The notes below the pieces were generated by a model. That model was not told the DNA's origin. It worked only from the letters and a program-made list of their open reading frames with translations, and searched no databases. This document shows, piece by piece, positions 16,748-60,223 of a stretch of 64,000 nt of DNA (position 1 is its first letter; each line of letters opens with the position of its first letter). Source of the stretch: Escherichia phage 4MG; the sequence record NC_022968.1, one strand, 5' to 3'. A program made the translations under genes and the position numbers.

Positions 16748-18001
16748 ATGAAAGTATATCTGGTAGGTGGCGCAGTACGTGACGGTTTGCTTGGTCGTGA
16801 AGTTCATGACCGTGACTACGTGGTTGTGGGTGCAACGCACGAAGAAATGATCAATAAAGGTTTCACCCAGGTTGGCGCTGCTTTTCCAGTATACCTGCAT
16901 CCTGAAACCAACGAAGAGTATGCTTTGGCCCGTACCGAGCGCAAGACGGGCAACGGTCATACAGACTTCGAAACATTCTTCAGCCCGGACGTGACTTTGG
17001 TTGAGGATTTGTCTCGTAGAGACCTGACGATCAACGCTATGGCTAAAGATTTGGAAACAGGAGAGATCATCGACCCGTTTGGTGGTCAGTATGATATCGA
17101 AAAGAAAATTCTGCGTCATACAACGCTGGCATTCCTTGACGATCCTCTCCGCATCCTGCGTGTGTACCGATTCAAAGCACAACTGGGCAAAGACTGGGAA
17201 ATCCATGCCGACACTAAAGCTCTGTGCTTTAATAACCGTTATGGGCTGTCCCACATCAGCGGTGAGCGTAAGTGGAAAGAGATGGAGAAAGCCCTTGGTT
17301 CTGACAACTTCCGGGCATATGCTGAAGCAATGGCAGAGCTTGGTGAGTTGCCAGAACTGGATGCCCTGCGTGGAGTAGCACAACCACCAGAACACCACCC
17401 GGAAGGTGATGCTTTCGTTCATACACTGCTGTGTTTGGATGTGGCTGACCTTTACGAGGCTAACCCGTATACCAAATTTGCAGTGCTGTGCCATGACTTC
17501 GGTAAGGCGATCACTTTCCGTAAATACGGCAATCTGATCGGGCATGAAGAGGCAGGTCTGGAACCAGTACGTACATTGTGTGAGCGTATCCGTGTGCCTA
17601 ACGACTTCCGTGATGTTGCACTGTACGTAACAGAGCACCACACCCGTGTTCACTGTATCGCCCCTCGTGGCGGCAATAAGGGTGCAAAGCCACGGTCACT
17701 GATGAAACTGTTTGAGGCAGCAGGTAATGTGGCGAGCGCCAAAACAGCGATGAAGGTTGGTTCTTTGGCAGATGCGTGTTTCTGCGATGCAAAAGGTCGT
17801 GGTCCAACAAAAATTGCAGAGCCGTATCCGCAGGGTTATGTTCTGATGGATGCTTTCCGTTGCATGAAGGCTGTTGACACTAAGGTGATCTCTGCTGAGT
17901 GCCTTGCAAAAGGTAAGAGCGGTATCGAGATTGGTGAAGCTATTCGTGTTGCACGTATTGATGCTATCCGTAGCATCACCCAGCGTGAAATTAAGTGGTA
18001 G
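16748..18001 (+). CDS. cca: CCA-adding tRNA nucleotidyltransferase with HD domain
   Basis: MKVYLVGGAVRDGLLGREVHDRDYVVVG ... RRDLTINAMA ... HD-domain residues; close resemblance to E. coli Cca recalled from memory. Confidence 0.85.
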   Translation: MKVYLVGGAVRDGLLGREVHDRDYVVVGATHEEMINKGFTQVGAAFPVYLHPETNEEYALARTERKTGNGHTDFETFFSPDVTLVEDLSRRDLTINAMAKDLETGEIIDPFGGQYDIEKKILRHTTLAFLDDPLRILRVYRFKAQLGKDWEIHADTKALCFNNRYGLSHISGERKWKEMEKALGSDNFRAYAEAMAELGELPELDALRGVAQPPEHHPEGDAFVHTLLCLDVADLYEANPYTKFAVLCHDFGKAITFRKYGNLIGHEEAGLEPVRTLCERIRVPNDFRDVALYVTEHHTRVHCIAPRGGNKGAKPRSLMKLFEAAGNVASAKTAMKVGSLADACFCDAKGRGPTKIAEPYPQGYVLMDAFRCMKAVDTKVISAECLAKGKSGIEIGEAIRVARIDAIRSITQREIKW

Positions 18002-18993: not shown

Positions 18994-19208
18994 CTATTGA
19001 ACTTGTAATTTACCTGTGCATCGGTATACTGTGCATGGTCGCTGTAATAGCTGCTGATTGGTTCTTGGCAGATAGATTATCTGGACAAGGAATTGGTATT
19101 GGGCTGCTGGCTGTTGTGTTCTGGCCTTTATTTGGGATTTGCCTTATTGGTGGCCTGATAGCTGCCCTGTTTGAAGAAGATTTTGTAATCGCAAGGAGAA
19201 AGAGATGA
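18990..19208 (+). CDS. small membrane protein
   Basis: Two hydrophobic segments; ATGA overlap. Confidence 0.5.
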   Translation: MTIELVIYLCIGILCMVAVIAADWFLADRLSGQGIGIGLLAVVFWPLFGICLIGGLIAALFEEDFVIARRKR

Positions 19209-19693
19209 AGACACGCATGTACTGCGTAGTAAACCAATATATTGCTGGCATCCATGCCGGGATTCAGTCGGCACACGCGATGTCGGAGATGTTCCTTGAT
19301 TACTCTCAGCGCCGTAACAATGCCGGAAACCTGTTGTGGGACTGGGCTGATCGCGACAAGACCGTAATCGTGCTCAACGGTGGCTACCAGTCTTCATTGC
19401 AGGAACTATGTGAGAAACTGAAGCCTCTGAGCGGCACTTACCCTTGGGCTTCCTTCTGTGAGGAACAGGATGCCCTGAACGGTGCGATGACCGCAGTTGC
19501 TGTTGTGCTGCCTGAGTATATGTACTCACCGCAATACGCAGAAGTTGTTGACTTGGTGAAATTACCAGGTTACAATCCACCACAAGTTGCTAATCAGTAT
19601 CGTGACGAGATGGGAAATACCATCCACAACTATACGCAACCTGAAAAAGACCTGATCACAATGATCAAATCATTCCGACTGAAAGGAGAATAA
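19205..19693 (+). CDS. hypothetical protein
   Basis: ATGA overlap; RBS AGGAGAAAG. Confidence 0.5.
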   Translation: MKTRMYCVVNQYIAGIHAGIQSAHAMSEMFLDYSQRRNNAGNLLWDWADRDKTVIVLNGGYQSSLQELCEKLKPLSGTYPWASFCEEQDALNGAMTAVAVVLPEYMYSPQYAEVVDLVKLPGYNPPQVANQYRDEMGNTIHNYTQPEKDLITMIKSFRLKGE

Positions 19694-20555: not shown

Positions 20556-21629
20556 ATGAAAACTTTTGATATGATGCGATGCTACTCAGGTAGCCTCGCG
20601 TATGGGACTAATCTCCCAACATCGGATGTTGATATCCGTGGTCTGTTCTGTGCGGAACCTAAGTTCATCCGTACTCCATTCTTCAATATCAAAGAGCAGA
20701 CGCTCGCTGATGAAGAGGATGGTAAGATCTACGAACTGACAAACTTCATGAAGTTGTTTGTGGAGATGAACCCCAACATCATCGAACTGATGTTTGTTGA
20801 TGAAAAAGATATCATTTCCAGTTCAGACGCTTACGCATACCTGCGTACAATGGCACCTGAGCTTATGTCAAGTAAGGTTGCATTTAGCTTCTCTGGTTAT
20901 GCTATGGCACAGCTTAAGCGTATCCGTGGTCATGATAAGTGGATCACCAATCCGCAACCGGAGGAAAAGCCAACGCAAAAGGACTTCTTCCGTTTAGTCC
21001 ACAACTACAGTGAGCACCCTTTCCTTGCTGGTGTAATTAAGCACGAACGCTTCATGGAGGCCATGACAAATCTGAACGATATGTGCGTCCTCGTTCCTTA
21101 TGGCAACGACATCTATGGTGTGATGGAGAACTTCAGTAGCTCAGGTATGTTCAACGCAGATGGTTCTATTCGTCATGTTGACTACCAGCAACTGTCTGAT
21201 ACAGACAAGCGCCGGAAACCTGTGTTCATTGTAAAGTATCTGGCAGAAGAGCACAAACAGGCAAAGGAGAAGCACCGTAACTACTGGGCCTGGAAGCAGA
21301 ACCGTAACGAAGTGCGTCATCAGCTTGAAGTGAACTTTGGGTACGACACCAAACACGCCATGCATCTTGTACGTCTGATGCGCATGGCTGAAGAGATCCT
21401 GACTGATGGAAAGGTTCTGGTGAAGCGTCCTGACGCTCAAGAACTCTTAGATATCCGTGGTGGCAAGTGGACTCTTGACGAGCTTCTTAAATGGGCTGAT
21501 GAAAAAGATCATTACATTCGCGAAGTTCTGTACAAAAAGACAGACCTGCCGAAGTACACCGATCTTGAGTTAGCTTCTCGTGTTCTCATGACAGCGCAGG
21601 ATATCTGCTGGGCGAGTATGGATGTTTGA
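20556..21629 (+). CDS. Pol-beta superfamily nucleotidyltransferase (minimal NTase or CD-NTase-like)
   Basis: SGSLAYGTNLPTSDVDIRG = GS-x9-13-DxD nucleotidyltransferase motif; RBS TAAGGAGAG. Confidence 0.55.
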   Translation: MKTFDMMRCYSGSLAYGTNLPTSDVDIRGLFCAEPKFIRTPFFNIKEQTLADEEDGKIYELTNFMKLFVEMNPNIIELMFVDEKDIISSSDAYAYLRTMAPELMSSKVAFSFSGYAMAQLKRIRGHDKWITNPQPEEKPTQKDFFRLVHNYSEHPFLAGVIKHERFMEAMTNLNDMCVLVPYGNDIYGVMENFSSSGMFNADGSIRHVDYQQLSDTDKRRKPVFIVKYLAEEHKQAKEKHRNYWAWKQNRNEVRHQLEVNFGYDTKHAMHLVRLMRMAEEILTDGKVLVKRPDAQELLDIRGGKWTLDELLKWADEKDHYIREVLYKKTDLPKYTDLELASRVLMTAQDICWASMDV

Positions 21630-47167: not shown

Positions 47168-47512
47168 TCACCCTCCGTTCTTTTCTATACCAAGGATCAT
47201 CCCCTGGAGTTGTTGTTTCATCGGGATCAATGCTGGGAAGTCGTCTACCCAGACATCCGGAACCCAACCCGCTTTTGCACAAACTGTAGCCTTCTGTACA
47301 CCACCACAGTAGATGATGTCAATGCCAAGTTTCTCAGCCCAGTATTCGATGTCTTCATTGCGATCCGTTTCATGTCGGAAGGTAACGAACTTCACCGACC
47401 AACCAGACCCACGAGAACAAAACAGGTGGACAAACTCAGCCCACCGTTGAGGGTCGAGGGTGAAGGTATCATCGAAGTCAAGCGCTATCCGCTTACTTTC
47501 AAATGGCTTCAC
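47168..47512 (-). CDS. small HAD-like protein
   Basis: IALDFDDTFT contains the DxDxT motif; GTG start. Confidence 0.4.
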   Translation of the reverse strand: MKPFESKRIALDFDDTFTLDPQRWAEFVHLFCSRGSGWSVKFVTFRHETDRNEDIEYWAEKLGIDIIYCGGVQKATVCAKAGWVPDVWVDDFPALIPMKQQLQGMILGIEKNGG

Positions 47513-47847
47513 AGCGCCCCCGGATCTGCATTCTCACAACGATCCCACTTGCCACACTTCTTATCAACGTAGTGCTCAAGGCGACGTTGGACTGTTTCTA
47601 CGATTGCTGGCATGTCATCCTCACGAGGATTAATGCAGTCCTGAAGTTCAAGCAGGAAGGCCAGATCGATTACACAGTTGATAACATCAGCAATCTCACC
47701 GATTGCAGGTTCATCGCAACGCCAAGGGCGATTAAGCGCTCTTGACAGTTCACCAACTTCCTCTACGAGATTCTTAAACACTGAATCAACAGTCCGGGCT
47801 TGCGCCCGAACCGAGGACTGGAGTACGCGTTCAGCGATTCCTGTCAT
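47509..47847 (-). CDS. MazG-like nucleotide pyrophosphohydrolase
   Basis: EEVGELSRAL ... EIADVINCVIDLA matches the MazG fold motif. Confidence 0.5.
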   Translation of the reverse strand: MTGIAERVLQSSVRAQARTVDSVFKNLVEEVGELSRALNRPWRCDEPAIGEIADVINCVIDLAFLLELQDCINPREDDMPAIVETVQRRLEHYVDKKCGKWDRCENADPGAL

Positions 47848-49529: not shown

Positions 49530-49912
49530 GCTGTCTCCAGATAGTCTTTCAGATATTCGATGACGTAGCTACGTGCATAGTTCTCATCAGCATCGTTATG
49601 CCACATTTTAGTGACAACACCAGTCAATTTGTATAGTGAACGTTCAAAATGGTTCATCCCCGGAAGAATACTCACCATAAAATCCTCTTCCTCACTAATT
49701 TCAAGAGGATTAACAGTGAAGTCTGGTTGAACTAGTGTCTCCCAGGCTCCATTTTTGAACCGTTTTAAGGTCAAGGCACGACGATTTGAAGAGGTAAGAT
49801 ACTCAGAGTAGTCATCCCCCTGGTGAAAACCGATCCTGACCATAGCCCCACTGTACATAAAATCAACATCCACAGTGAGGCGCTCTACCTTCAGCCTATT
49901 TTGCGTGTTCAT
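49526..49912 (-). CDS. hypothetical protein
   Basis: ATGA overlap. Confidence 0.45.
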   Translation of the reverse strand: MNTQNRLKVERLTVDVDFMYSGAMVRIGFHQGDDYSEYLTSSNRRALTLKRFKNGAWETLVQPDFTVNPLEISEEEDFMVSILPGMNHFERSLYKLTGVVTKMWHNDADENYARSYVIEYLKDYLETA

Positions 49913-51332
49913 CTAAGTCAACAGCCCTCCCAAATGGTGGGTCGTACTTGGATTTGTTACGTCCACACAGCACCCACAACGTATCCCACTTCTTACCCCA
50001 GTCTTTTTTGCGTGAGGTAAGGTCTTCAATGTACCCATCAGTGAAGATTATCACATCTTTTGCATCAGGGATATTCTTTTCGATGTATTCAAAGGCAACA
50101 CCAGCGCGTGTACCACCTGTGGAAGTCACATTATAGTCCAGCATCTCCTTGATGTTATCCTGTGTGTACACTTTCACTTCCCCAACCATCGTAGACCAGC
50201 AGAAAAGTGTTACCCGGAAGCACTTATACAGGGTGCACAGGCCAATAATCTCATTGAATATCCTGGTCATGGTCTGTCTGCTGATAGAACCCGACACATC
50301 GAAGCATACAACGATGTCGATTGTCTCAGATTGCTTCCTTCCCGGAAGAATAATGCTCTGTTTGTGGGTGATTGCCCCATAATTACGCAGTACCTGGGTC
50401 ACCGAGCCAGACCTACGAGCGGGTTTACGGTACGAAAGGTGCGACCTCACACGAGAAACCATACGTTGTTTAATGATTTTCATGTAGTCAATGTGTGGTT
50501 TCCGCATTCTTGCAATCAATTCCCGCGCTTCTTTCGGCCCTTCACCCCCGGCAGCACTCATTGCAGCATCAATCAGCCCAGCAGACCACGCAAGATTCTC
50601 ATCTTTGGCGATTGGGCCGAGGCTTGGGTGCGGGTCTACATACCCAAGGATGTCACGCTCAGGGTCATAATCCCCGATATGTGTACCCATAGGGTTGCCA
50701 GTAACCGCTTTCCCATTGTAGATCATCTCGTAAATTTCTTCTGCTGTCTTGTTTTGGAATGCAAAATCACAATAGCAGTAGGCAAGGAATCCAAATTCTT
50801 TGTCTTTATTGAACTTAGTTTGCGCCCCCAGAGGGAAGAACTTCAGGGTTTTATTCCTTGGCCCCAAGTCTCCAGCCACCAAATCTGTGTTGATGTACTG
50901 ATCCGCTGCGATATTGTACATCTTGGAGTTGAAGCTTTTACCACGGGCCATATGGTCGTTGGTGATATGGCGTATTTCATGCATGAGAATAACCACCACT
51001 TCTTTTGGTGTTTTCTTGCGATAGAATACGTCTACATACGTCTTGTAATCATCCTTCTGTTGTTGTGTCATTGTTGGATGATTGTCAATACGATCAAACA
51101 CTTTCTTTTTGCGCTCTGCTGGCATACCCATAATGAACTCAGGGTTGTAATACAGATTACGATGGTCTGTTGCAGCCGTTGGCAACCAACGCCAGTCAGC
51201 GATGATCGGTAAAGAACTCAGCAAAGTTCCGTAAAATGGGCGATGTTGCAGCAATGCAATACGTGCTGACTGAATTAGTTTTAGCGCTTCATCTTGAAGC
51301 TTAGAGATCATCTCAGATTCATCTTTGTACAC
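49896..51332 (-). CDS. metallopeptidase-like / von Willebrand factor A domain protein (DUF2201-like architecture)
   Basis: HEIRH (HExxH) in N-terminal half; DVSGSI (MIDAS DxSxS) in C-terminal half; start set at GTG with GGAG RBS. Confidence 0.55.
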   Translation of the reverse strand: MYKDESEMISKLQDEALKLIQSARIALLQHRPFYGTLLSSLPIIADWRWLPTAATDHRNLYYNPEFIMGMPAERKKKVFDRIDNHPTMTQQQKDDYKTYVDVFYRKKTPKEVVVILMHEIRHITNDHMARGKSFNSKMYNIAADQYINTDLVAGDLGPRNKTLKFFPLGAQTKFNKDKEFGFLAYCYCDFAFQNKTAEEIYEMIYNGKAVTGNPMGTHIGDYDPERDILGYVDPHPSLGPIAKDENLAWSAGLIDAAMSAAGGEGPKEARELIARMRKPHIDYMKIIKQRMVSRVRSHLSYRKPARRSGSVTQVLRNYGAITHKQSIILPGRKQSETIDIVVCFDVSGSISRQTMTRIFNEIIGLCTLYKCFRVTLFCWSTMVGEVKVYTQDNIKEMLDYNVTSTGGTRAGVAFEYIEKNIPDAKDVIIFTDGYIEDLTSRKKDWGKKWDTLWVLCGRNKSKYDPPFGRAVDLDEHAK

Positions 51333-51381: not shown

Positions 51382-51645
51382 TCACTCTTCTACAGGATGC
51401 AAGAACTTTTGTGGTAAAAAGTGATCAAGCCCTTCTATTCTGAAACACCAGGCCAACTGAGCACCAGGAGCACCGGGGAAATGTGGGATAGCAAACAAGA
51501 CAATCCCATCAACTTTTCCAATTACGAGTCGCCCCATAGAGGTTGTTGATACCTTTTGACCGAACTTGATATCCGGAATAAAGCCTGCATCCAACATTTT
51601 CTTTTCAGGAGCCGACGCGGGTCGGCCCAGCATTTCTTCGTACAT
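51382..51645 (-). CDS. hypothetical protein
   Basis: TAATG overlap with upstream gene. Confidence 0.45.
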   Translation of the reverse strand: MYEEMLGRPASAPEKKMLDAGFIPDIKFGQKVSTTSMGRLVIGKVDGIVLFAIPHFPGAPGAQLAWCFRIEGLDHFLPQKFLHPVEE

Positions 51646-52577
51646 TACACCACCTTGTTGAGCATCGCAGCAATCTTAGGCAGGCCCATCTCTGTCTGAA
51701 TGATCAGTTGGGTCAGCGCCTTTTCCATTTTCTTCGACACAATGATGAAGTTGTCTTTAGCAAAACCAACTTTAAGGTCCATAATCAGGATCGCCTTTGG
51801 TTCACCAGACAGCTTCTCTCCGGTCAGAGAGCAGGTATTGCGAATATACTTCGCTTTGAACTGTGCATAGGTCACAGAAACGTTCATACCAGCGTCGGAG
51901 AATGTCTTGCAGTAGTTGGCGTAGGCCAGCGCTACAGCAACATCATCAGGCAGTTTTTGCTTCTCTTCCGCTGGTGCTGTAGTTTCTTCTGCAACCGGAG
52001 GCTGTTTATGGAAGTGCTGTTCAGCAAGTTCCATTGCGGAAGACGCGGTGCGCTCTTTAGGTTCCGGGTGACGTGGAAAATCTTCTGCAACAACAGGTTT
52101 TTCTACAACTTCTGAAGTATCTACTGGCATTTCTTTCTCCTCTTTTGGAATATATTTGGTTTTCAGTTTTTCCATGTGCTCTTTTGACATGTTGAGCATC
52201 ATTGCTTGTACGATTTCACGGTCAAGTGGCTCAATTATAGTGATTGCCGTCTTCTTGTCAACCAAACAATCTTTCAGTTCGTTAGCACGTTGAAGAACAA
52301 CACAGACGTTACCACGTACATAACCCTTCTTATCGTTGATACGCTCAACGGTTGGGTACAGCGGGTCTTTTTCACCATGCACAGAGCGCATACTGAAGTC
52401 CATATTGGTATAGTCACATTTACCCATACCAAGAAGCTTTTCACCCATCATGAACCAGTCATCAAGGGTCAGACTGAATTCCAGGCCACGTTTCTTTGTG
52501 CGTTCAACCTTTTTACGGTAACGTTCCTCTAGACTTTTGATCTCACTGGCGGTAAATTTCTTTTTCACATCAAACAT
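51645..52577 (-). CDS. hypothetical protein with degenerate HNH_3-like segment
   Basis: ERINDKKGYVRGNVCVVLQRANELK resembles the C-terminal half of HNH_3; minus-strand AAGGAG RBS. Confidence 0.45.
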   Translation of the reverse strand: MFDVKKKFTASEIKSLEERYRKKVERTKKRGLEFSLTLDDWFMMGEKLLGMGKCDYTNMDFSMRSVHGEKDPLYPTVERINDKKGYVRGNVCVVLQRANELKDCLVDKKTAITIIEPLDREIVQAMMLNMSKEHMEKLKTKYIPKEEKEMPVDTSEVVEKPVVAEDFPRHPEPKERTASSAMELAEQHFHKQPPVAEETTAPAEEKQKLPDDVAVALAYANYCKTFSDAGMNVSVTYAQFKAKYIRNTCSLTGEKLSGEPKAILIMDLKVGFAKDNFIIVSKKMEKALTQLIIQTEMGLPKIAAMLNKVV

Positions 52578-52647
52578 TTTCTACTCCTTGGGTTATTCCC
52601 GTTCTTGTTGGGAGAATTATCCTGGATTGTGTCCCCACTGTCAACAC

Positions 52648-52676
52648 TTGATTTCAAAATTTTTACAGTGTATGCT
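52648..52676 (+). promoter_or_regulatory. sigma70-type promoter
   Basis: TTGATT - 17 nt - TATGCT, then GAGGAA RBS and ATG at 52708. Confidence 0.55.
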
Positions 52677-52707
52677 TTCTATACATTCAGTAAGCAGAGG
52701 AATAAAA

Positions 52708-53739
52708 ATGAGTAAGTTTAACGTTGATGTGCGACCCGTGTCTGTCCCAAAAGTGACTGCGGATATAGACTGGAGCCTGTTGAAAGATGACCAAACAACC
52801 CGTGACATGCTGGAACAGCTACAGAGAGAAAGGGAGTATCGACAAATGGCAATGATAGGTATGTGGGAAAACCCACGAGCCAGTAAGGATGAGTTTATCT
52901 CCCGTTTGCAACCCAAGATGGTGGAGGATAATCCTTTCGTAGAACTGCTCAGAGAACTTGTTGATAGGGTTGATGTCAGAGATGGCCCATATTCATGGTT
53001 ATGGGGGACATATGAAGACCGCCGTGGTGGTATGGACAGACGCCAAATGGCAAGATTAGAAGTAGAAATAAGAGAAAGAAACCCTTCCTCAAGCCCTTTT
53101 GAGCGCGCGCCGGGTGAGGATGTATCACGGGGTAGTGTTATCGCTTCTATTCGTGGTCATGGTGATGGTGCAGCGCTTATTGATAGTCATAACTGGCGTT
53201 TGTCTTCACGCACAAGGAACTTTCTCTCTATCTTGAAGCCACTGATCCGGCAAATGGGCCGCTGTGAGCCTGACCTGGTGATAAAGGCAGATTTCAGAAG
53301 GTATAGTGCCAGTACATCGAGCTTTATGCAGCCGCGCTCTGATATCGACCTGCTGGGTATTTCTTTAACCATTGGCGACCTGCTTGTATATTGTGATTTC
53401 AGAGATCGTGATAATTTTGATGTACACTGCAATCACATTGGACACAGTGTTTTCCATTTGCGTGACCAAGGTGTAAGGGTGCAGAATGCTCGTGAGGCGA
53501 TGTTGATTTGCAATAAATATGAAACGCTCTTCACTTTTAAGTGGGACGAACGTCTGAGAAACATGATGGCAGGTGAATCTCCAACGGAAGATGAACTGCT
53601 AATGATGGAAATGGCTGGTTATAAAGATGAATTTTGGCTTGACAAGATAGATTACTTTGATACACTCAAGATCAAACCTTTTAACATGATGGAGCAATCA
53701 CGATGGTACGAACAAACAATTCCTCGATTCCAGTTTTAA
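52708..53739 (+). CDS. hypothetical protein
   Basis: 343 aa, trimmed start. Confidence 0.5.
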   Translation: MSKFNVDVRPVSVPKVTADIDWSLLKDDQTTRDMLEQLQREREYRQMAMIGMWENPRASKDEFISRLQPKMVEDNPFVELLRELVDRVDVRDGPYSWLWGTYEDRRGGMDRRQMARLEVEIRERNPSSSPFERAPGEDVSRGSVIASIRGHGDGAALIDSHNWRLSSRTRNFLSILKPLIRQMGRCEPDLVIKADFRRYSASTSSFMQPRSDIDLLGISLTIGDLLVYCDFRDRDNFDVHCNHIGHSVFHLRDQGVRVQNAREAMLICNKYETLFTFKWDERLRNMMAGESPTEDELLMMEMAGYKDEFWLDKIDYFDTLKIKPFNMMEQSRWYEQTIPRFQF

Positions 53740-54212
53740 CCCCGGCACAAGAACTCGCTTTAGCGATTAAAATTGCAGCAGAAGGCCACCTGAATCAGAA
53801 AGATAAGGGTGGTAACCCGTATATTCTTCACCCGCTGAAGGTGATGCACTACCTGAAGACCGATGATTTTCAGCTTATGGCTATCGCCGCGCTTCATGAT
53901 GTGGTTGAAGACACCGATGTTACCGCTTCGGATCTGGTAATGCTGGGCTTCTCGAATCGTGTGAAGGATGCTGTGGTTCTTCTGACGAAAACCCCTAATC
54001 AGACACCGGAAGAGTATTTTAACCGCCTAGCCCAAAACTACGATGCGGTACGTGTGAAGCTTGCAGACCTGCGCCATAACTCTGATGTTCGTCGTCTGAA
54101 AGGGCTGACGGATAAAGATTTGTTGCGTGTTCGTAAGTATCACGACATGTACCTTCGTCTGACAAAGATGAAAGAACACCATGAAGCAATCAATATGTTG
54201 TCGCAACTATGA
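53703..54212 (+). CDS. HD-domain (p)ppGpp hydrolase-like protein (small alarmone hydrolase)
   Basis: HLNQKDKGGNPYILHP ... AALHDVVEDT ... LADLRHN match the RelA/SpoT hydrolase motifs. Confidence 0.6.
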   Translation: MVRTNNSSIPVLTPAQELALAIKIAAEGHLNQKDKGGNPYILHPLKVMHYLKTDDFQLMAIAALHDVVEDTDVTASDLVMLGFSNRVKDAVVLLTKTPNQTPEEYFNRLAQNYDAVRVKLADLRHNSDVRRLKGLTDKDLLRVRKYHDMYLRLTKMKEHHEAINMLSQL

Positions 54213-54562
54213 ACCTCTTGACACTGCTCCGCACAAACAAGTATACTCAGAAACAGATGGGGTTCCTGCTGGGAATTCCCTCGTGGAAAGTGAGTAAGCT
54301 CGTTCTCAAGCTTGAGAGCCGTGGTTACATACAGGTTAATCGTAGATACAAACTGAGTGGTCCAGTGTCAAGACCTTTTTTGATTTACGATCAGAATCTT
54401 TACAAAGTGACTCTATACAGGAGCAAAGAATGTCCAGAAATCAAGGTTACACCCACAAAGGAACAGTCCAGAAGCCGCGACTCGGTTGGGCGTGGACTGA
54501 GAAACTTCGCGAAACATCTCGTTACTGGATGTCTTACCAGCATTCGGAGACCGGAAAGGTAG
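54209..54562 (+). CDS. hypothetical protein (3' end overlaps next ORF)
   Basis: ATGA overlap with upstream gene. Confidence 0.35.
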   Translation: MNLLTLLRTNKYTQKQMGFLLGIPSWKVSKLVLKLESRGYIQVNRRYKLSGPVSRPFLIYDQNLYKVTLYRSKECPEIKVTPTKEQSRSRDSVGRGLRNFAKHLVTGCLTSIRRPER

Positions 54563-54642
54563 TGAAGTACCGTAAAACTGACGGTAAAGTTGTGGGTGGT
54601 GAAGACTACCTTGATCTCGAATCCATTAAGGAGCTTAAATGA
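54430..54642 (+). CDS. hypothetical protein
   Basis: CAGGAGCAAAGA RBS; overlaps previous ORF in another frame. Confidence 0.4.
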   Translation: MSRNQGYTHKGTVQKPRLGWAWTEKLRETSRYWMSYQHSETGKVVKYRKTDGKVVGGEDYLDLESIKELK

Positions 54643-55127
54643 ATATCAAATCAAGCAAACAGCTTTACGAAGAGCACCTTGAAAAAGGTACACCACTTGA
54701 GAACATCCTCAAGGTTATGGTCAACAGGGCTGATCGTTATCAGAACTATTACAACGATATGAAGATCCGTGCAAAGAACTACGAAAAGCAATATGATGAC
54801 CTGCTTCGTAGTTCTGGACGGCTTATCACTGTTAAGGTTGATCATATAGCACAGGACAACTGGGTGTCATACACCTGGTACAAGCACAACAAATATCGCT
54901 GGAACGGTAAATGCTGGCACAAAACTGATGATAAAGGGCCGCATTACAATGCAAAACACTACCAAGGGAAGTTTACTGTGGATATTCTTCTTTCAGAAGA
55001 AGATATGCCAGAAGTTTTCGTTGGTAAATGCACGGGTAGTGTCTTCGGAGAAAAGGTGATCACAGCCAAAGGGCATATGATCGGGTACGGTGATGAATTT
55101 GAATTGAGGAAAATAACCAATGGCTAA
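54639..55127 (+). CDS. hypothetical protein
   Basis: ATGA overlap. Confidence 0.5.
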   Translation: MNIKSSKQLYEEHLEKGTPLENILKVMVNRADRYQNYYNDMKIRAKNYEKQYDDLLRSSGRLITVKVDHIAQDNWVSYTWYKHNKYRWNGKCWHKTDDKGPHYNAKHYQGKFTVDILLSEEDMPEVFVGKCTGSVFGEKVITAKGHMIGYGDEFELRKITNG

Positions 55128-55713: not shown

Positions 55714-56922
55714 ATGTCGAGTCGTAACATTTTTGATGAGAACCGTATCACACTTCGGGATGTTCCTGATCTGATGAAGTTCTGTCAGCGTCGTGGACGC
55801 GCTTTGATGATGTTTGGTGGTGCTGGTCTTGGCAAGAGCCAGGCAATGAAGCAGGTAGCCAATATGATGTTTGGTGAGCGTGACGACAACCTGATCGACT
55901 TCCGTCTTGCGGATAAAGAACCGTCTGACGTTGTTGGGGTGCAGATCCCCGTTACCGACAACAATGGTATTACACGTACTGTGTACGCTATCCCAAGCTT
56001 CTGGCCTGATGATCCGAACTGGCAGGGCATTGTGTTCCTGGATGAGTTGCTCCATGCGGAGCCATATCTCCAGAAAGTTGCCTATCAGATCATGCTTGAT
56101 CATAAGATCGGTACATATAAGTTCCCGGTAGGCGCGGTGTTTGCAGGTGCAGGTAACCGCCCTGGTGATGGTACTGCGGTAAGTATGCTGGAAGCTCCAC
56201 TGGCTAACCGTATGATCCTCGTTGAACTGGATTACGACACAACTGTTTGGTTACAGGACTTCGCTATGCACAACGATGTTCACCCATCCGTTGTTGGTTT
56301 TGTGAGCGCAAACCCAAGTAAGATCGAAAACTATGAAGAGATGCTGGAGATTAACTCCCCTTCATACGCCACTCCGCGTACTTGGGTCACCGCAAGTGAT
56401 ATTCTGTACGATTATGACGCAGGCCTGCTCTCTGCTCGTCTGGCACTGGCATCGTTGCAGGGTAGTATCGGTAAGCCTCTGGCTAACGAACTGTGGGAAT
56501 ACCATACCCGTATCTCCAAAATGGTCTCTATCGAGGATGTGATGAGCGGTAAACTTACTAAACATACCGGGGCTGACTCATCCGACATCCTGTGGACACT
56601 GGGTTCTCAAGGTTCTATCTGGCTTCGTAAGGCTATCCAGAACAAGGAGTACACTGATGATGAGGTTATCGCGTTTGCTGCTAACTTCCTGAAGTATATG
56701 TATGATAACTTCGGGCAGGATGACACGGCATCCAACCGTGACTTCGTAAGTTCGGTGTTTATGTCCTTCATCCAGGAGAACTCCTTCGGGAAGGCGATCC
56801 TGATGTCGGGTAACCGTGAGCGTTTACCTGCTAAACTACTCCAGAAATACCCGGTGGTTATGGAGATCATCACAGAATACCGTAAGAACTTCTCTGACGG
56901 TGTAGATGCAATCGTGAACTAA
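55714..56922 (+). CDS. MoxR/CobS-like AAA+ ATPase
   Basis: Walker A GGAGLGKSQ, Walker B IVFLDELLHAEP; trimmed to ATG after AAAGGAGACAAACTA. Confidence 0.65.
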   Translation: MSSRNIFDENRITLRDVPDLMKFCQRRGRALMMFGGAGLGKSQAMKQVANMMFGERDDNLIDFRLADKEPSDVVGVQIPVTDNNGITRTVYAIPSFWPDDPNWQGIVFLDELLHAEPYLQKVAYQIMLDHKIGTYKFPVGAVFAGAGNRPGDGTAVSMLEAPLANRMILVELDYDTTVWLQDFAMHNDVHPSVVGFVSANPSKIENYEEMLEINSPSYATPRTWVTASDILYDYDAGLLSARLALASLQGSIGKPLANELWEYHTRISKMVSIEDVMSGKLTKHTGADSSDILWTLGSQGSIWLRKAIQNKEYTDDEVIAFAANFLKYMYDNFGQDDTASNRDFVSSVFMSFIQENSFGKAILMSGNRERLPAKLLQKYPVVMEIITEYRKNFSDGVDAIVN

Positions 56923-59219: not shown

Positions 59220-59732
59220 ATGACGATTGAATTAAAACTGGACACAGCGGCAGTAGAAAAGCTTTTCCCAGAGGGGACAGAACTGCGTGTAAACCTACAA
59301 CAATCTGTGGTGAACAATATCGCCAAGCGGATTCTTGATCGCGATATCTCTGTTCGCCTGGAAACCTTGATCCGTACCCATGTGGCGCATGAGTGCGGCA
59401 TGATGGACCTGAATACCCTGGTCAAGAATGCTCTTGATGCACACCTTGAGAAAACTGGCTGGCATGATCACCGTCTTAAGGATAGCACCACCTCACAGAT
59501 CCGTGAATTGGTTAAGAAAAAGGTGCAACAGCTTGCGGATTCAGAAATGCAAAAGATCATTAACGATACCCTTTCTCGTTCTACCAATACGATGAAGGAT
59601 ACCCTTGATCGCCATATCGACAATGCGCTTCAGGATGTGGAAAAACACATCGCTACACGCCTTAACCAGAAATTCGCTGCGGTTGTTGATGCTGCGATTG
59701 CTGCTAAACTCGGTATGGAGGTGAAGAAATGA
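59220..59732 (+). CDS. hypothetical protein
   Basis: RBS GAGGAGTTGTAT. Confidence 0.5.
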   Translation: MTIELKLDTAAVEKLFPEGTELRVNLQQSVVNNIAKRILDRDISVRLETLIRTHVAHECGMMDLNTLVKNALDAHLEKTGWHDHRLKDSTTSQIRELVKKKVQQLADSEMQKIINDTLSRSTNTMKDTLDRHIDNALQDVEKHIATRLNQKFAAVVDAAIAAKLGMEVKK

Positions 59733-60223
59733 GCTTCAAATACAAAGTTGGTGACCTGATCGAAGCGGTCAAGAATGGTGAGGTTAATGTTTTTGCGCAT
59801 GGCTGCAACTGTTTTTGCACAATGGGTAGCGGTATCGCACCACTGATCAAAGAAGCGTTTCCGAAAATGTACGCTGCGGATCTGAAGACCGAGAAGGGTG
59901 ATAAGCATAAGCTTGGAACCTACACAATGGCCTTCCTGAAGGACGGCGAAGCTGCTGGTTTTAATCTGTATTCGCAATATGGCTATAATCGCCGTAAACA
60001 GGGCCTCAGGGACCTCGATTACAATGCCCTGTATGATTCGTTGGATTTGATGAAGAAGGCCTTACAGAGCTTTACAGACGGTTCTGTGGCTGACTACAAA
60101 ATCGGCTTCCCTAAAATCGGTGCTGGTCTTGCAGGCGGCGACTGGAACGTCATCGAAGCGATGATCAAGTCCGTGTTTTGGGATTGCGATGTCACAATCT
60201 ACATCCTTCCGGAGAAAAAGTGA
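59729..60223 (+). CDS. macro domain protein (ADP-ribose binding or hydrolysing)
   Basis: VFAHGCNCFCTMGSGIAPLI and IGFPKIGAGLAGGDW match the two glycine-rich macro-domain motifs; ATGA overlap. Confidence 0.55.
   Translation: MSFKYKVGDLIEAVKNGEVNVFAHGCNCFCTMGSGIAPLIKEAFPKMYAADLKTEKGDKHKLGTYTMAFLKDGEAAGFNLYSQYGYNRRKQGLRDLDYNALYDSLDLMKKALQSFTDGSVADYKIGFPKIGAGLAGGDWNVIEAMIKSVFWDCDVTIYILPEKK

Follow-up and report, generated by a model that had tools for sequence, protein, structure and literature searches.

A predicted small alarmone hydrolase of the PbcSpo/Aph1 branch in Escherichia phage 4MG and its probable role against toxSAS enzymes

A stretch of 64,000 nucleotides from Escherichia phage 4MG (sequence record NC_022968.1; hereafter the window) carries, at 53703..54212 on the + strand, a coding sequence for a protein of 169 amino acids that sequence and predicted structure place in the small alarmone hydrolase (SAH) class, as a stand-alone HD hydrolase of the RelA/SpoT superfamily in its PbcSpo/Aph1 branch. 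We consider it likely that this SAH is an adenosine 3'-pyrophosphate hydrolase and serves as an enzymatic counter-defence against toxSAS enzymes; relief of the stringent response through (p)ppGpp hydrolysis is probably not its function. We infer its substrate preference and its role in infection, rather than demonstrate them, from the sequence and by analogy with characterized relatives. The gene is of an already known kind: the family, the structure, the specificity determinants and the neutralisation of toxSAS by an ortholog have all been published. It illustrates well how a phage enzyme can reverse what a bacterial immune effector does chemically, rather than binding and blocking the effector itself. 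Most phage homologs carry no label beyond 'metal-dependent phosphohydrolase' or are named, probably in error, '(p)ppGpp pyrophosphohydrolase', and a useful outcome is to correct the annotation to PbcSpo/Aph-type adenosine 3'-pyrophosphohydrolase. Whether such enzymes protect against CapRel- or FaRel-type defences in real infections, and whether they do so through (pp)pApp or through modified tRNA, is a worthwhile question, although not a new one.

Results

The coding sequence is an open reading frame (ORF) that runs from an ATG to a TGA stop, the latter included in the coordinates, and a GGAG Shine-Dalgarno sequence, read directly from the DNA, lies at 53691..53694 (+), 8 nucleotides 5' of the ATG. 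The same start codon is annotated in the phages PVP-SE1, KpS8 and GAP31. This is a real gene and no chance ORF, because protein searches return homologs up to E 6e-99, PHROG 990 ('metal-dependent phosphohydrolase') matches at 4e-68, and the ratio of nonsynonymous to synonymous divergence (dN/dS) from the PVP-SE1 ortholog is 0.048 (dN 0.046 and dS 0.945; 17.2 nonsynonymous and 63.8 synonymous differences). The gene is under strong purifying selection. An earlier note, made from the sequence alone, had described the ORF for 169 amino acids at 53703-54212 exactly as we find it, together with the motifs GGNPYILHP (residues 36-44), AALHDVVEDT (62-71) and LADLRHN (120-126), all of which are present. 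Its remark that the protein has no synthetase domain was borne out by a Pfam scan, which gave no RelA_SpoT match in this single-domain protein, and its placement in the RelA/SpoT-type HD superfamily stands, with the catalytic set intact in the alignment to RelSeq.

The profile hidden Markov model search suggested in the same note gave a divided answer. Pfam HD_4 (PF13328) scores 21.9 bits (E 1.5e-4) over residues 21-89 only, which falls short of the gathering cut-off (27.2 bits), and NCBIfam spoT_relA gives 56 bits over residues 21-104. The sub-threshold HD_4 score reflects the sensitivity of that model for the PbcSpo/Aph1 branch; a precomputed Pfam domain is missing from close homologs too, and more distant homologs have one. 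Weak Pfam matches to Sigma70_r1_2 and SEN1_barrel were set aside as sub-threshold noise. Because HD_4 falls below its threshold, the family assignment was taken from sequence and fold matches to PDB entries. By far the best sequence match is 7SMG, a '(p)ppApp hydrolase' (E 2.8e-28, residues 18-159), and the others are Rel/SpoT hydrolase domains (3e-11 to 3e-8) and MESH1 (1e-7 to 1e-6).

An AlphaFold2 model built from an alignment of 105 sequences predicts one compact helical domain, with a predicted local distance difference test score (pLDDT) of 96.8 and a predicted template modelling score (pTM) of 0.92. Foldseek ranks the four chains of 7SMG first, at E ~9e-11 and target template modelling (TM) scores of 0.90-0.92; the root mean square deviation is 1.9-2.2 Å for three of the four chains and 3.8 Å for chain B. 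MESH1 comes next (5e-7, TM ~0.65), followed by the Pseudomonas aeruginosa SAH, Rel and SpoT. Residues 1-13 of the predicted structure are non-helical, its last helix (137-168) is one continuous element, and the modelled fold is the compact HD fold of the Aph1 type, without the extra alpha-0 and alpha-9 helices of Rel and other SAHs.

The Bacteroides caccae enzyme in 7SMG is Aph1 (adenosine 3'-pyrophosphohydrolase 1), with which the class of monofunctional (p)ppApp hydrolases was founded (Ahmad et al. 2023, PMC10083569). Aph1 is the best match in both sequence and fold, and the 4MG protein shares with it the HD/ED catalytic set, six signature residues and the lack of a separate extra C-terminal helix. 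The two differ in that identity is 35-40%, that the phage protein has about 13 extra N-terminal residues, and that its last helix reaches residue 168; Aph1 forms a tetramer through its N- and C-termini, and the termini of the phage protein are longer. Their settings differ as well, Aph1 being an immunity gene in a prophage MuF-toxin cassette and the 4MG gene standing alone in a virulent-type myovirus. Aph1 hydrolyses pApp, ppApp and pppApp, with undetectable hydrolysis of ppGpp, and ppApp was cleaved by 12 of 12 Aph1 homologs, two of which also had modest activity on ppGpp (PMC10083569).

Alignment to 7SMG, BsRel and RelSeq (1VJ7), with residue counts over 105 family representatives, shows the catalytic residues to be complete. 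The metal ligands H43, H65, D66 and D122 correspond to RelSeq H53, H77, D78 and D144, the E69-D70 pair to E81-D82, and N126 to N148; all seven residues are invariant (105/105). The first metal-binding histidine, H43, is encoded at 53829..53831 (+), and the codons from the metal-binding dyad H65-D66 through the catalytic dyad E69-D70 occupy 53895..53912 (+). The DLRHNSDVRR segment, with the fourth metal ligand D122 and with N126, D128 and R131, is encoded at 54066..54095 (+), as aligned to 7SMG and Rel. Mutation of the HD motif to Ala inactivates Aph1, and D54A, at the corresponding HD active-site Asp, inactivates ATfaRel.

Specificity residues set the protein apart from the Rel hydrolases. The Aph signature comprises six residues, in Aph1 numbering D24, R96, D116, R119, K133 and Y134 (PMC10083569), and it is complete in the 4MG protein as D34 (conserved in 102/105 representatives), R108 (46/105), D128 (82/105), R131 (104/105), K145 (83/105, plus 10 with Arg) and Y146 (105/105). 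The D34 codon lies at 53802..53804 (+), and the adjacent K145-Y146 codons at 54135..54140 (+); the tyrosine is a proposed pyrophosphate contact. D34 aligns with the specificity determinant D24 of Aph1, and the equivalent position in Rel is a guanine-contacting Arg. The basic residue that contacts guanine in the HD1 motif (RelSeq R44, TtRel R43) is therefore absent from the phage protein, which has D34 instead. In Aph1 itself, D24 replaces the guanine-stacking R43 of TtRel, and the D24R+R119A double mutant gains ppGpp hydrolysis (PMC10083569). PbcSpo enzymes have likewise been reported to lack the HD1 motif of (pp)pGpp hydrolases.

The closest experimentally studied relative appears to be gp220 of Salmonella phage PVP-SE1 (YP_004894027), which is identical at 156 of 169 residues (92%) without gaps. 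It shares the start codon, the catalytic and active-site signature residues and the flanking genes, both of which are orthologous (gp219, 70% identical; gp221, 86%). None of the 13 substitutions falls on a catalytic or active-site signature residue, although R108 is replaced by Gly; the two phages, about 84-85% identical in DNA, are different species. Jimmy et al. (PNAS 2020, PMC7229694) classified the SAH of PVP-SE1 as PbcSpo, and in their Table 1 the 'PVP-SE1 SAH (PbcSpo)' co-expressed in E. coli neutralises five of five toxSAS, namely CapRel, PhRel2, FaRel2, PhRel and FaRel. Since only a single place in the PVP-SE1 genome matches the 4MG protein, even at E<=1, gp220 is, on this indirect sequence evidence, the enzyme that they tested. 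The same authors propose that incoming phages bypass alarmone-mediated defence through encoded hydrolases (PMC7229694).

Two further SAHs of known activity bear on the comparison. ATfaRel, the antitoxin of Cellulomonas marina FaRel, which we compared by description, is also PbcSpo according to Jimmy et al. (PMC7229694). It neutralises all toxSAS (PMC7229694), removes the 3'-pyrophosphate from the tRNA CCA end in vitro and restores aminoacylation of FaRel2-pyrophosphorylated tRNA; MESH1 restores aminoacylation of the modified tRNA too. It differs in lying beside its toxin in a three-gene toxin-antitoxin operon and is reported to lower ppGpp in vivo. PaSpo (SSU5_099) of Salmonella phage SSU5 is, like the 4MG protein, a stand-alone phage SAH; it neutralises all tested toxSAS and removes the FaRel2 modification from tRNA. 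It belongs to another subfamily, however, with 36% identity over 119 residues and a length of 213 amino acids, a Rel-like Arg-Lys at the position of D34-K35, no HNSD..R segment and a Pfam HD_4 score of 68 bits.

More distant enzymes share less. The Rel/SpoT and MESH1 hydrolases have the superfamily, the metal ligands and the ED dyad in common with the 4MG protein, but they have Arg at D34 and Thr at R131, lack the two-residue SD insert, carry extra helices and align at TM ~0.6-0.69. Atd1 (Ho et al.) is a phage enzyme that removes an alarmone and blunts abortive infection, but its fold is the unrelated MazG fold and its substrate is (p)ppGpp; the 'ATD1 alarmone-degrading enzyme' was accordingly rejected as an SAH. 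Two candidates for ppGpp-hydrolysing members of PbcSpo were also rejected: XccSAH is Mesh1-L, and the paper on the Corynebacterium glutamicum SAH sets pbcSpo apart from the subgroup of its own enzyme.

Proposed function and alternative explanations

In the mechanism that we propose, a divalent metal (Mn2+ or Mg2+) would be held by H43, H65, D66 and D122, and together with the E69-D70 dyad it would hydrolyse the 3'-pyrophosphate ester of adenosine nucleotides, converting pppApp, ppApp and pApp to ATP, ADP and AMP plus pyrophosphate. D34 and R131 may shape the base pocket so that adenine is favoured over guanine. The same chemistry would very probably strip the 3'-pyrophosphate that translation-targeting toxSAS add to A76 of the tRNA CCA end, so that the feature common to the putative substrates would be a pyrophosphate on an adenosine 3'-OH, either free (pApp, ppApp, pppApp) or on tRNA A76. 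FaRel2, PhRel, PhRel2 and CapRel make no alarmone, and the FaRel and Tas1/Apk toxins make (pp)pApp; an adenine-selective HD hydrolase that reverses both classes of toxSAS product would hence fit the universal rescue seen with the ortholog. During infection the enzyme would erase the products of toxSAS of CapRel-, FaRel2-, PhRel- and FaRel-type abortive-infection or toxin-antitoxin systems, with the products of injected (p)ppApp synthetase toxins as a possible further target, and translation and ATP pools would then last long enough for phage production. Anti-phage CapRel systems occur in Salmonella and E. coli prophages (SJ46), Enterobacter and Klebsiella, and since CapRel-bearing genera are hosts of this phage group, a counter-defence role is ecologically plausible. 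The idea of an adenosine-3'-pyrophosphate eraser was put forward in general terms by Jimmy et al. (PMC7229694) and Kurata et al. More tentatively, and as a serious possibility to which we would not commit, the SAH may ignore (p)ppGpp altogether, repair tRNA CCA ends pyrophosphorylated by CapRel-type defences and clear (pp)pApp, as the product of an anti-defence gene in an accessory segment of some Vequintavirinae. Such an enzyme could work alongside the CCA-adding-like enzyme, RlaP and RNA ligase of the phage described below.

That the protein is primarily a (p)ppGpp hydrolase, with which the phage collapses the host stringent response and keeps transcription and translation running, we regard as unlikely. 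Several GenBank records imply as much by naming the ortholog 'guanosine-3',5'-bis(diphosphate) 3'-pyrophosphohydrolase', and membership of the RelA/SpoT (RSH) superfamily with every RelSeq catalytic residue present is consistent with it. The stringent response can restrict phages, and T7 gp8 and the MazG-like Atd1 target it by other means; the reduction of ppGpp in vivo by ATfaRel, a PbcSpo member, and the modest ppGpp activity of 2/12 Aph homologs point the same way. The base pocket argues otherwise, in that D34 stands in place of Rel's guanine-contacting Arg and R131 fills the space where Aph1 needs Ala for guanine. So do the missing HD1 motif of PbcSpo, the lack of detectable ppGpp hydrolysis in Aph1, and sequence and fold comparisons in which Aph1 leads Rel, SpoT and MESH1 by many orders of magnitude, and a separate MazG-like gene of the phage could cover ppGpp. 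The '(p)ppGpp hydrolase' label in the earlier note hence finds no support in an Aph1-branch protein with D34 at the position of RelSeq R44 and R131 in an HNSD..R segment, and neither does its suggestion that degradation of host alarmone keeps the cell active, given the activities of Aph1 and the cleavage of ppApp by all 12 homologs. The alternative that it offered, a counter to alarmone-based immunity, agrees with the published result for the 92%-identical ortholog, on which the toxicity rescue against a small alarmone synthetase, listed there as a check, has in effect been done, with a positive outcome against five toxSAS (PMC7229694).

Two other explanations find less favour. A housekeeping phosphatase for phage nucleotide metabolism, acting like MESH1 on reduced nicotinamide adenine dinucleotide phosphate (NADPH), 3'-phosphoadenosine 5'-phosphosulfate (PAPS) or another 3'-phosphorylated nucleotide or cofactor, would suit a window rich in nucleotide-metabolism genes (RNR, ThyX, NT5C, MazG), and MESH1-type SAHs are promiscuous, with NADPH and PAPS complexes among the fold matches. 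Yet the match to Aph1 is much better than that to MESH1, the Aph signature is kept under strong purifying selection, the ortholog rescues cells from toxSAS and the 'thymidylate kinase' label of the adjacent gene is unsupported, all of which makes this very unlikely. To a type IV antitoxin or immunity protein against a (p)ppApp synthetase toxin of the phage itself, as Aph1 is against the MuF-fused Apk2, we give next to no credence, although ATfaRel is the antitoxin of FaRel, and Aph1 and its homolog in Streptococcus phage K13 directly follow a MuF-domain protein and a small ORF. Pfam found no RelA_SpoT synthetase or MuF domain in the 64 ORFs for at least 110 amino acids in the window (64 kb of a genome of ~145 kb), a scan that can miss divergent Apk domains, as the case of the K13 MuF protein illustrates. 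Since none was found, the toxin-immunity paradigm of Aph1 is unsupported within the window, where the gene does not occupy the Aph-cassette position directly 3' of a MuF-fused (p)ppApp synthetase and a Tis1-like gene. Its neighbours are conserved proteins of no assigned function rather than toxins, the same stand-alone arrangement recurs in PVP-SE1, KpS8, GAP31, Hena1 and CR9, and in the account of Jimmy et al. the SAH of PVP-SE1 likewise stands alone (PMC7229694).

Several points weigh against the preferred reading of an adenosine 3'-pyrophosphate hydrolase with a counter-defence role. The Pfam HD_4 match is below the gathering threshold, and signature position R108 is variable (46/105; Gly in PVP-SE1), although its Aph1 equivalent R96 is the only signature residue that Ahmad et al. 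placed away from the active site (PMC10083569). Adenine specificity in the family is not absolute, as the two of 12 Aph homologs with modest ppGpp hydrolysis indicate, and ATfaRel, which lowers ppGpp in vivo, is not counted as ppApp-specific by Ahmad et al. Removal of pyrophosphate from tRNA is known for ATfaRel, MESH1 and PaSpo, not for the clade of the 4MG protein. The rescue by the ortholog was seen only with co-expression from plasmids in E. coli, with heterologous toxins, and not in infection; an infection-level test of any phage SAH was not found in the literature searched.

Distribution among phages

The window comes from a myovirus of the rV5/PVP-SE1-like group (Vequintavirinae). A megablast search with 53000-55000 returned 57 phage records, every one of a myovirus of this group with a genome of ~145 kb; their hosts are Klebsiella, Salmonella, Cronobacter, Erwinia, Escherichia, Enterobacter, Proteus and Raoultella, and the best match is Escherichia phage vB_EcoM_LNA4 (85% identity). 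The annotated relatives belong to the Vequintavirinae, genera Mydovirus, Seunavirus and Henunavirus, and the SAH is conserved and syntenic in these phages, mostly under the label 'metal-dependent phosphohydrolase'. More widely, tblastn finds SAH homologs in 355 phage records at E<=1e-5, a number that rises to 772 at E<=1, and protein searches find 4,264 homologs at E<=1e-5 and 6,064 clusters (50% clustering) at E<=1e-10.

Asp at the position of the Rel Arg, together with the HNSD..R segment, provides a residue test that tells Aph-type phage copies from PaSpo-type and other ones. The Aph-type D-K and HN.D..R features are present in Aeromonas phage Aes012 (T4-like) and Streptococcus phage K13 and partly in Rhodococcus phage Trina, and they are missing in Pseudomonas phage XD2, Vibrio phage F100 and the SSU5 PaSpo. 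At 701-2905 of the Streptococcus phage K13 sequence compared here, a portal gene, a 527-residue MuF-domain 'minor head protein', a 69-residue ORF and a 137-residue SAH homolog with the Aph-type signature follow one another. The arrangement resembles a toxin-immunity cassette of the Apk2/Tis1/Aph1 style, carried by pneumococcal prophages, although Pfam recognised no synthetase domain in the MuF protein's C-terminal half. In four Klebsiella phage records (OY979426.1, OY757067.1, OY978784.1 and OY978796.1) the features listed under the SAH match are unrelated ones ('major head protein', 'nicotinamide phosphoribosyl transferase', 'Rz-like spanin' and 'Sir2'), which suggests that their annotation tables are offset from the sequence.

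Locus and neighbouring genes

The SAH gene lies in a rightward string of genes that diverges from an Srd-like/HNH gene, in an order also found in PVP-SE1, KpS8, GAP31 and Hena1. The upstream gene of the same string (52708..53739, +; 343 amino acids), whose true start is the ATG at 52708, overlaps the start of the SAH gene by 37 nucleotides, and the downstream gene (54209..54562, +; 117 amino acids; PHROG 23131, 'unknown function') begins with an ATG that overlaps the SAH stop codon (ATGA); such close packing on both sides is characteristic of phage operons. At the corresponding locus in rV5, which is syntenic, the Srd-like gene, a gp006-like gene and the MoxR-type ATPase are conserved, and no SAH match was found there even at E<=10. 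Because the gene is absent from that locus and is present in Cronobacter phage CR9 without the upstream gene, it is a separable accessory gene in a variable segment, as is usual for anti-defence genes. The CR9 arrangement also led us to reject the upstream gene as an obligatory functional partner.

Despite being named 'thymidylate kinase' in RefSeq and PHROG 10920, the upstream gene has no Pfam, NCBIfam or PDB sequence match; its AlphaFold2 model, built from five orthologs, is unusable (pLDDT 40.7), and the label looks unsupported. Only a 48-residue stretch is shared between it and rV5 gp010. On the downstream side, the 117-residue ORF overlaps a 70-residue ORF in another frame (54430-54642, +), and the stretch 54209-54642 is annotated differently in relatives, as a 61-residue gene in KpS8 and as the overlapping genes 029A and 028 in GAP31. 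Gene calls in 54209-54642 are uncertain.

The variable segment is flanked by a DUF2201 metallopeptidase/VWA-like protein at 49896-51311 (-; DUF2201_N 3.8e-24, DUF2201 7.7e-12, VWA_CoxE 2.2e-07) and by the MoxR-type ATPase at 55714-56922 (+; PHROG 1297, 3e-106). Likely counterparts of the DUF2201 protein by position and size, KpS8 gp108 and PVP-SE1 gp216, are apparently named 'HNH endonuclease' in RefSeq, which the domain matches do not support. The divergent gene (51645-52577, -; 310 amino acids) matches PHROGs for HNH endonuclease, 'decoy of host sigma70' and 'Srd anti-sigma factor'. In front of it, at 52616-52644 (-), lies the region's best match to a sigma-70-like promoter, TTGACA-17-GATAAT (11/12); PVP-SE1 and rV5 also have annotated promoters in the corresponding position. 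The intergenic interval 52578-52707 holds only a weak rightward sigma-70-like match. Overall, the promoter consensus scan gave 10 sites where 7.6 +/- 2.8 were expected, no significant excess; sites were recorded at 53639-53666 and 54218-54247, among others.

Other genes of the window

A protein of 417 amino acids encoded at 16748-18001 (+) has, by Pfam, a PolyA_pol head (7.5e-21), a PolyA_pol RNA-binding domain and an HD domain, an arrangement that by sequence corresponds to bacterial class II CCA-adding/tRNA nucleotidyltransferases that carry a phosphohydrolase domain. A phage enzyme for repair of tRNA 3' ends is of interest beside an SAH that possibly acts on tRNA CCA ends. ARAGORN found no tRNA genes in the 64-kb window, so any tRNA cluster of the phage lies outside it. 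Four more genes look like RNA-repair or anti-defence genes: RlaP, of the RNA repair pathway pol-beta family (20556-21629, +; 1.6e-13), an RNA ligase (PF09414; 61453-62514, +; 1.9e-08), a Macro domain protein (59729-60223, +; 4e-05) and a weak, sub-threshold match to the PTH2 peptidyl-tRNA hydrolase (19205-19693, +; 0.0025).

A MazG-like protein of 112 amino acids is encoded at 47509-47847 (-), with a sub-threshold Pfam MazG match (E 0.0012). The MazG-like Atd1 has been reported to deplete (p)ppGpp and to blunt TIR-based defence (Ho et al.), and phage 4MG may split the removal of guanosine and adenosine alarmones between the unrelated MazG-like enzyme and the SAH. The likely counterpart of the MazG-like gene in KpS8 is a 339-nucleotide gene of the same size, annotated as 'MazG-like pyrophosphatase'.

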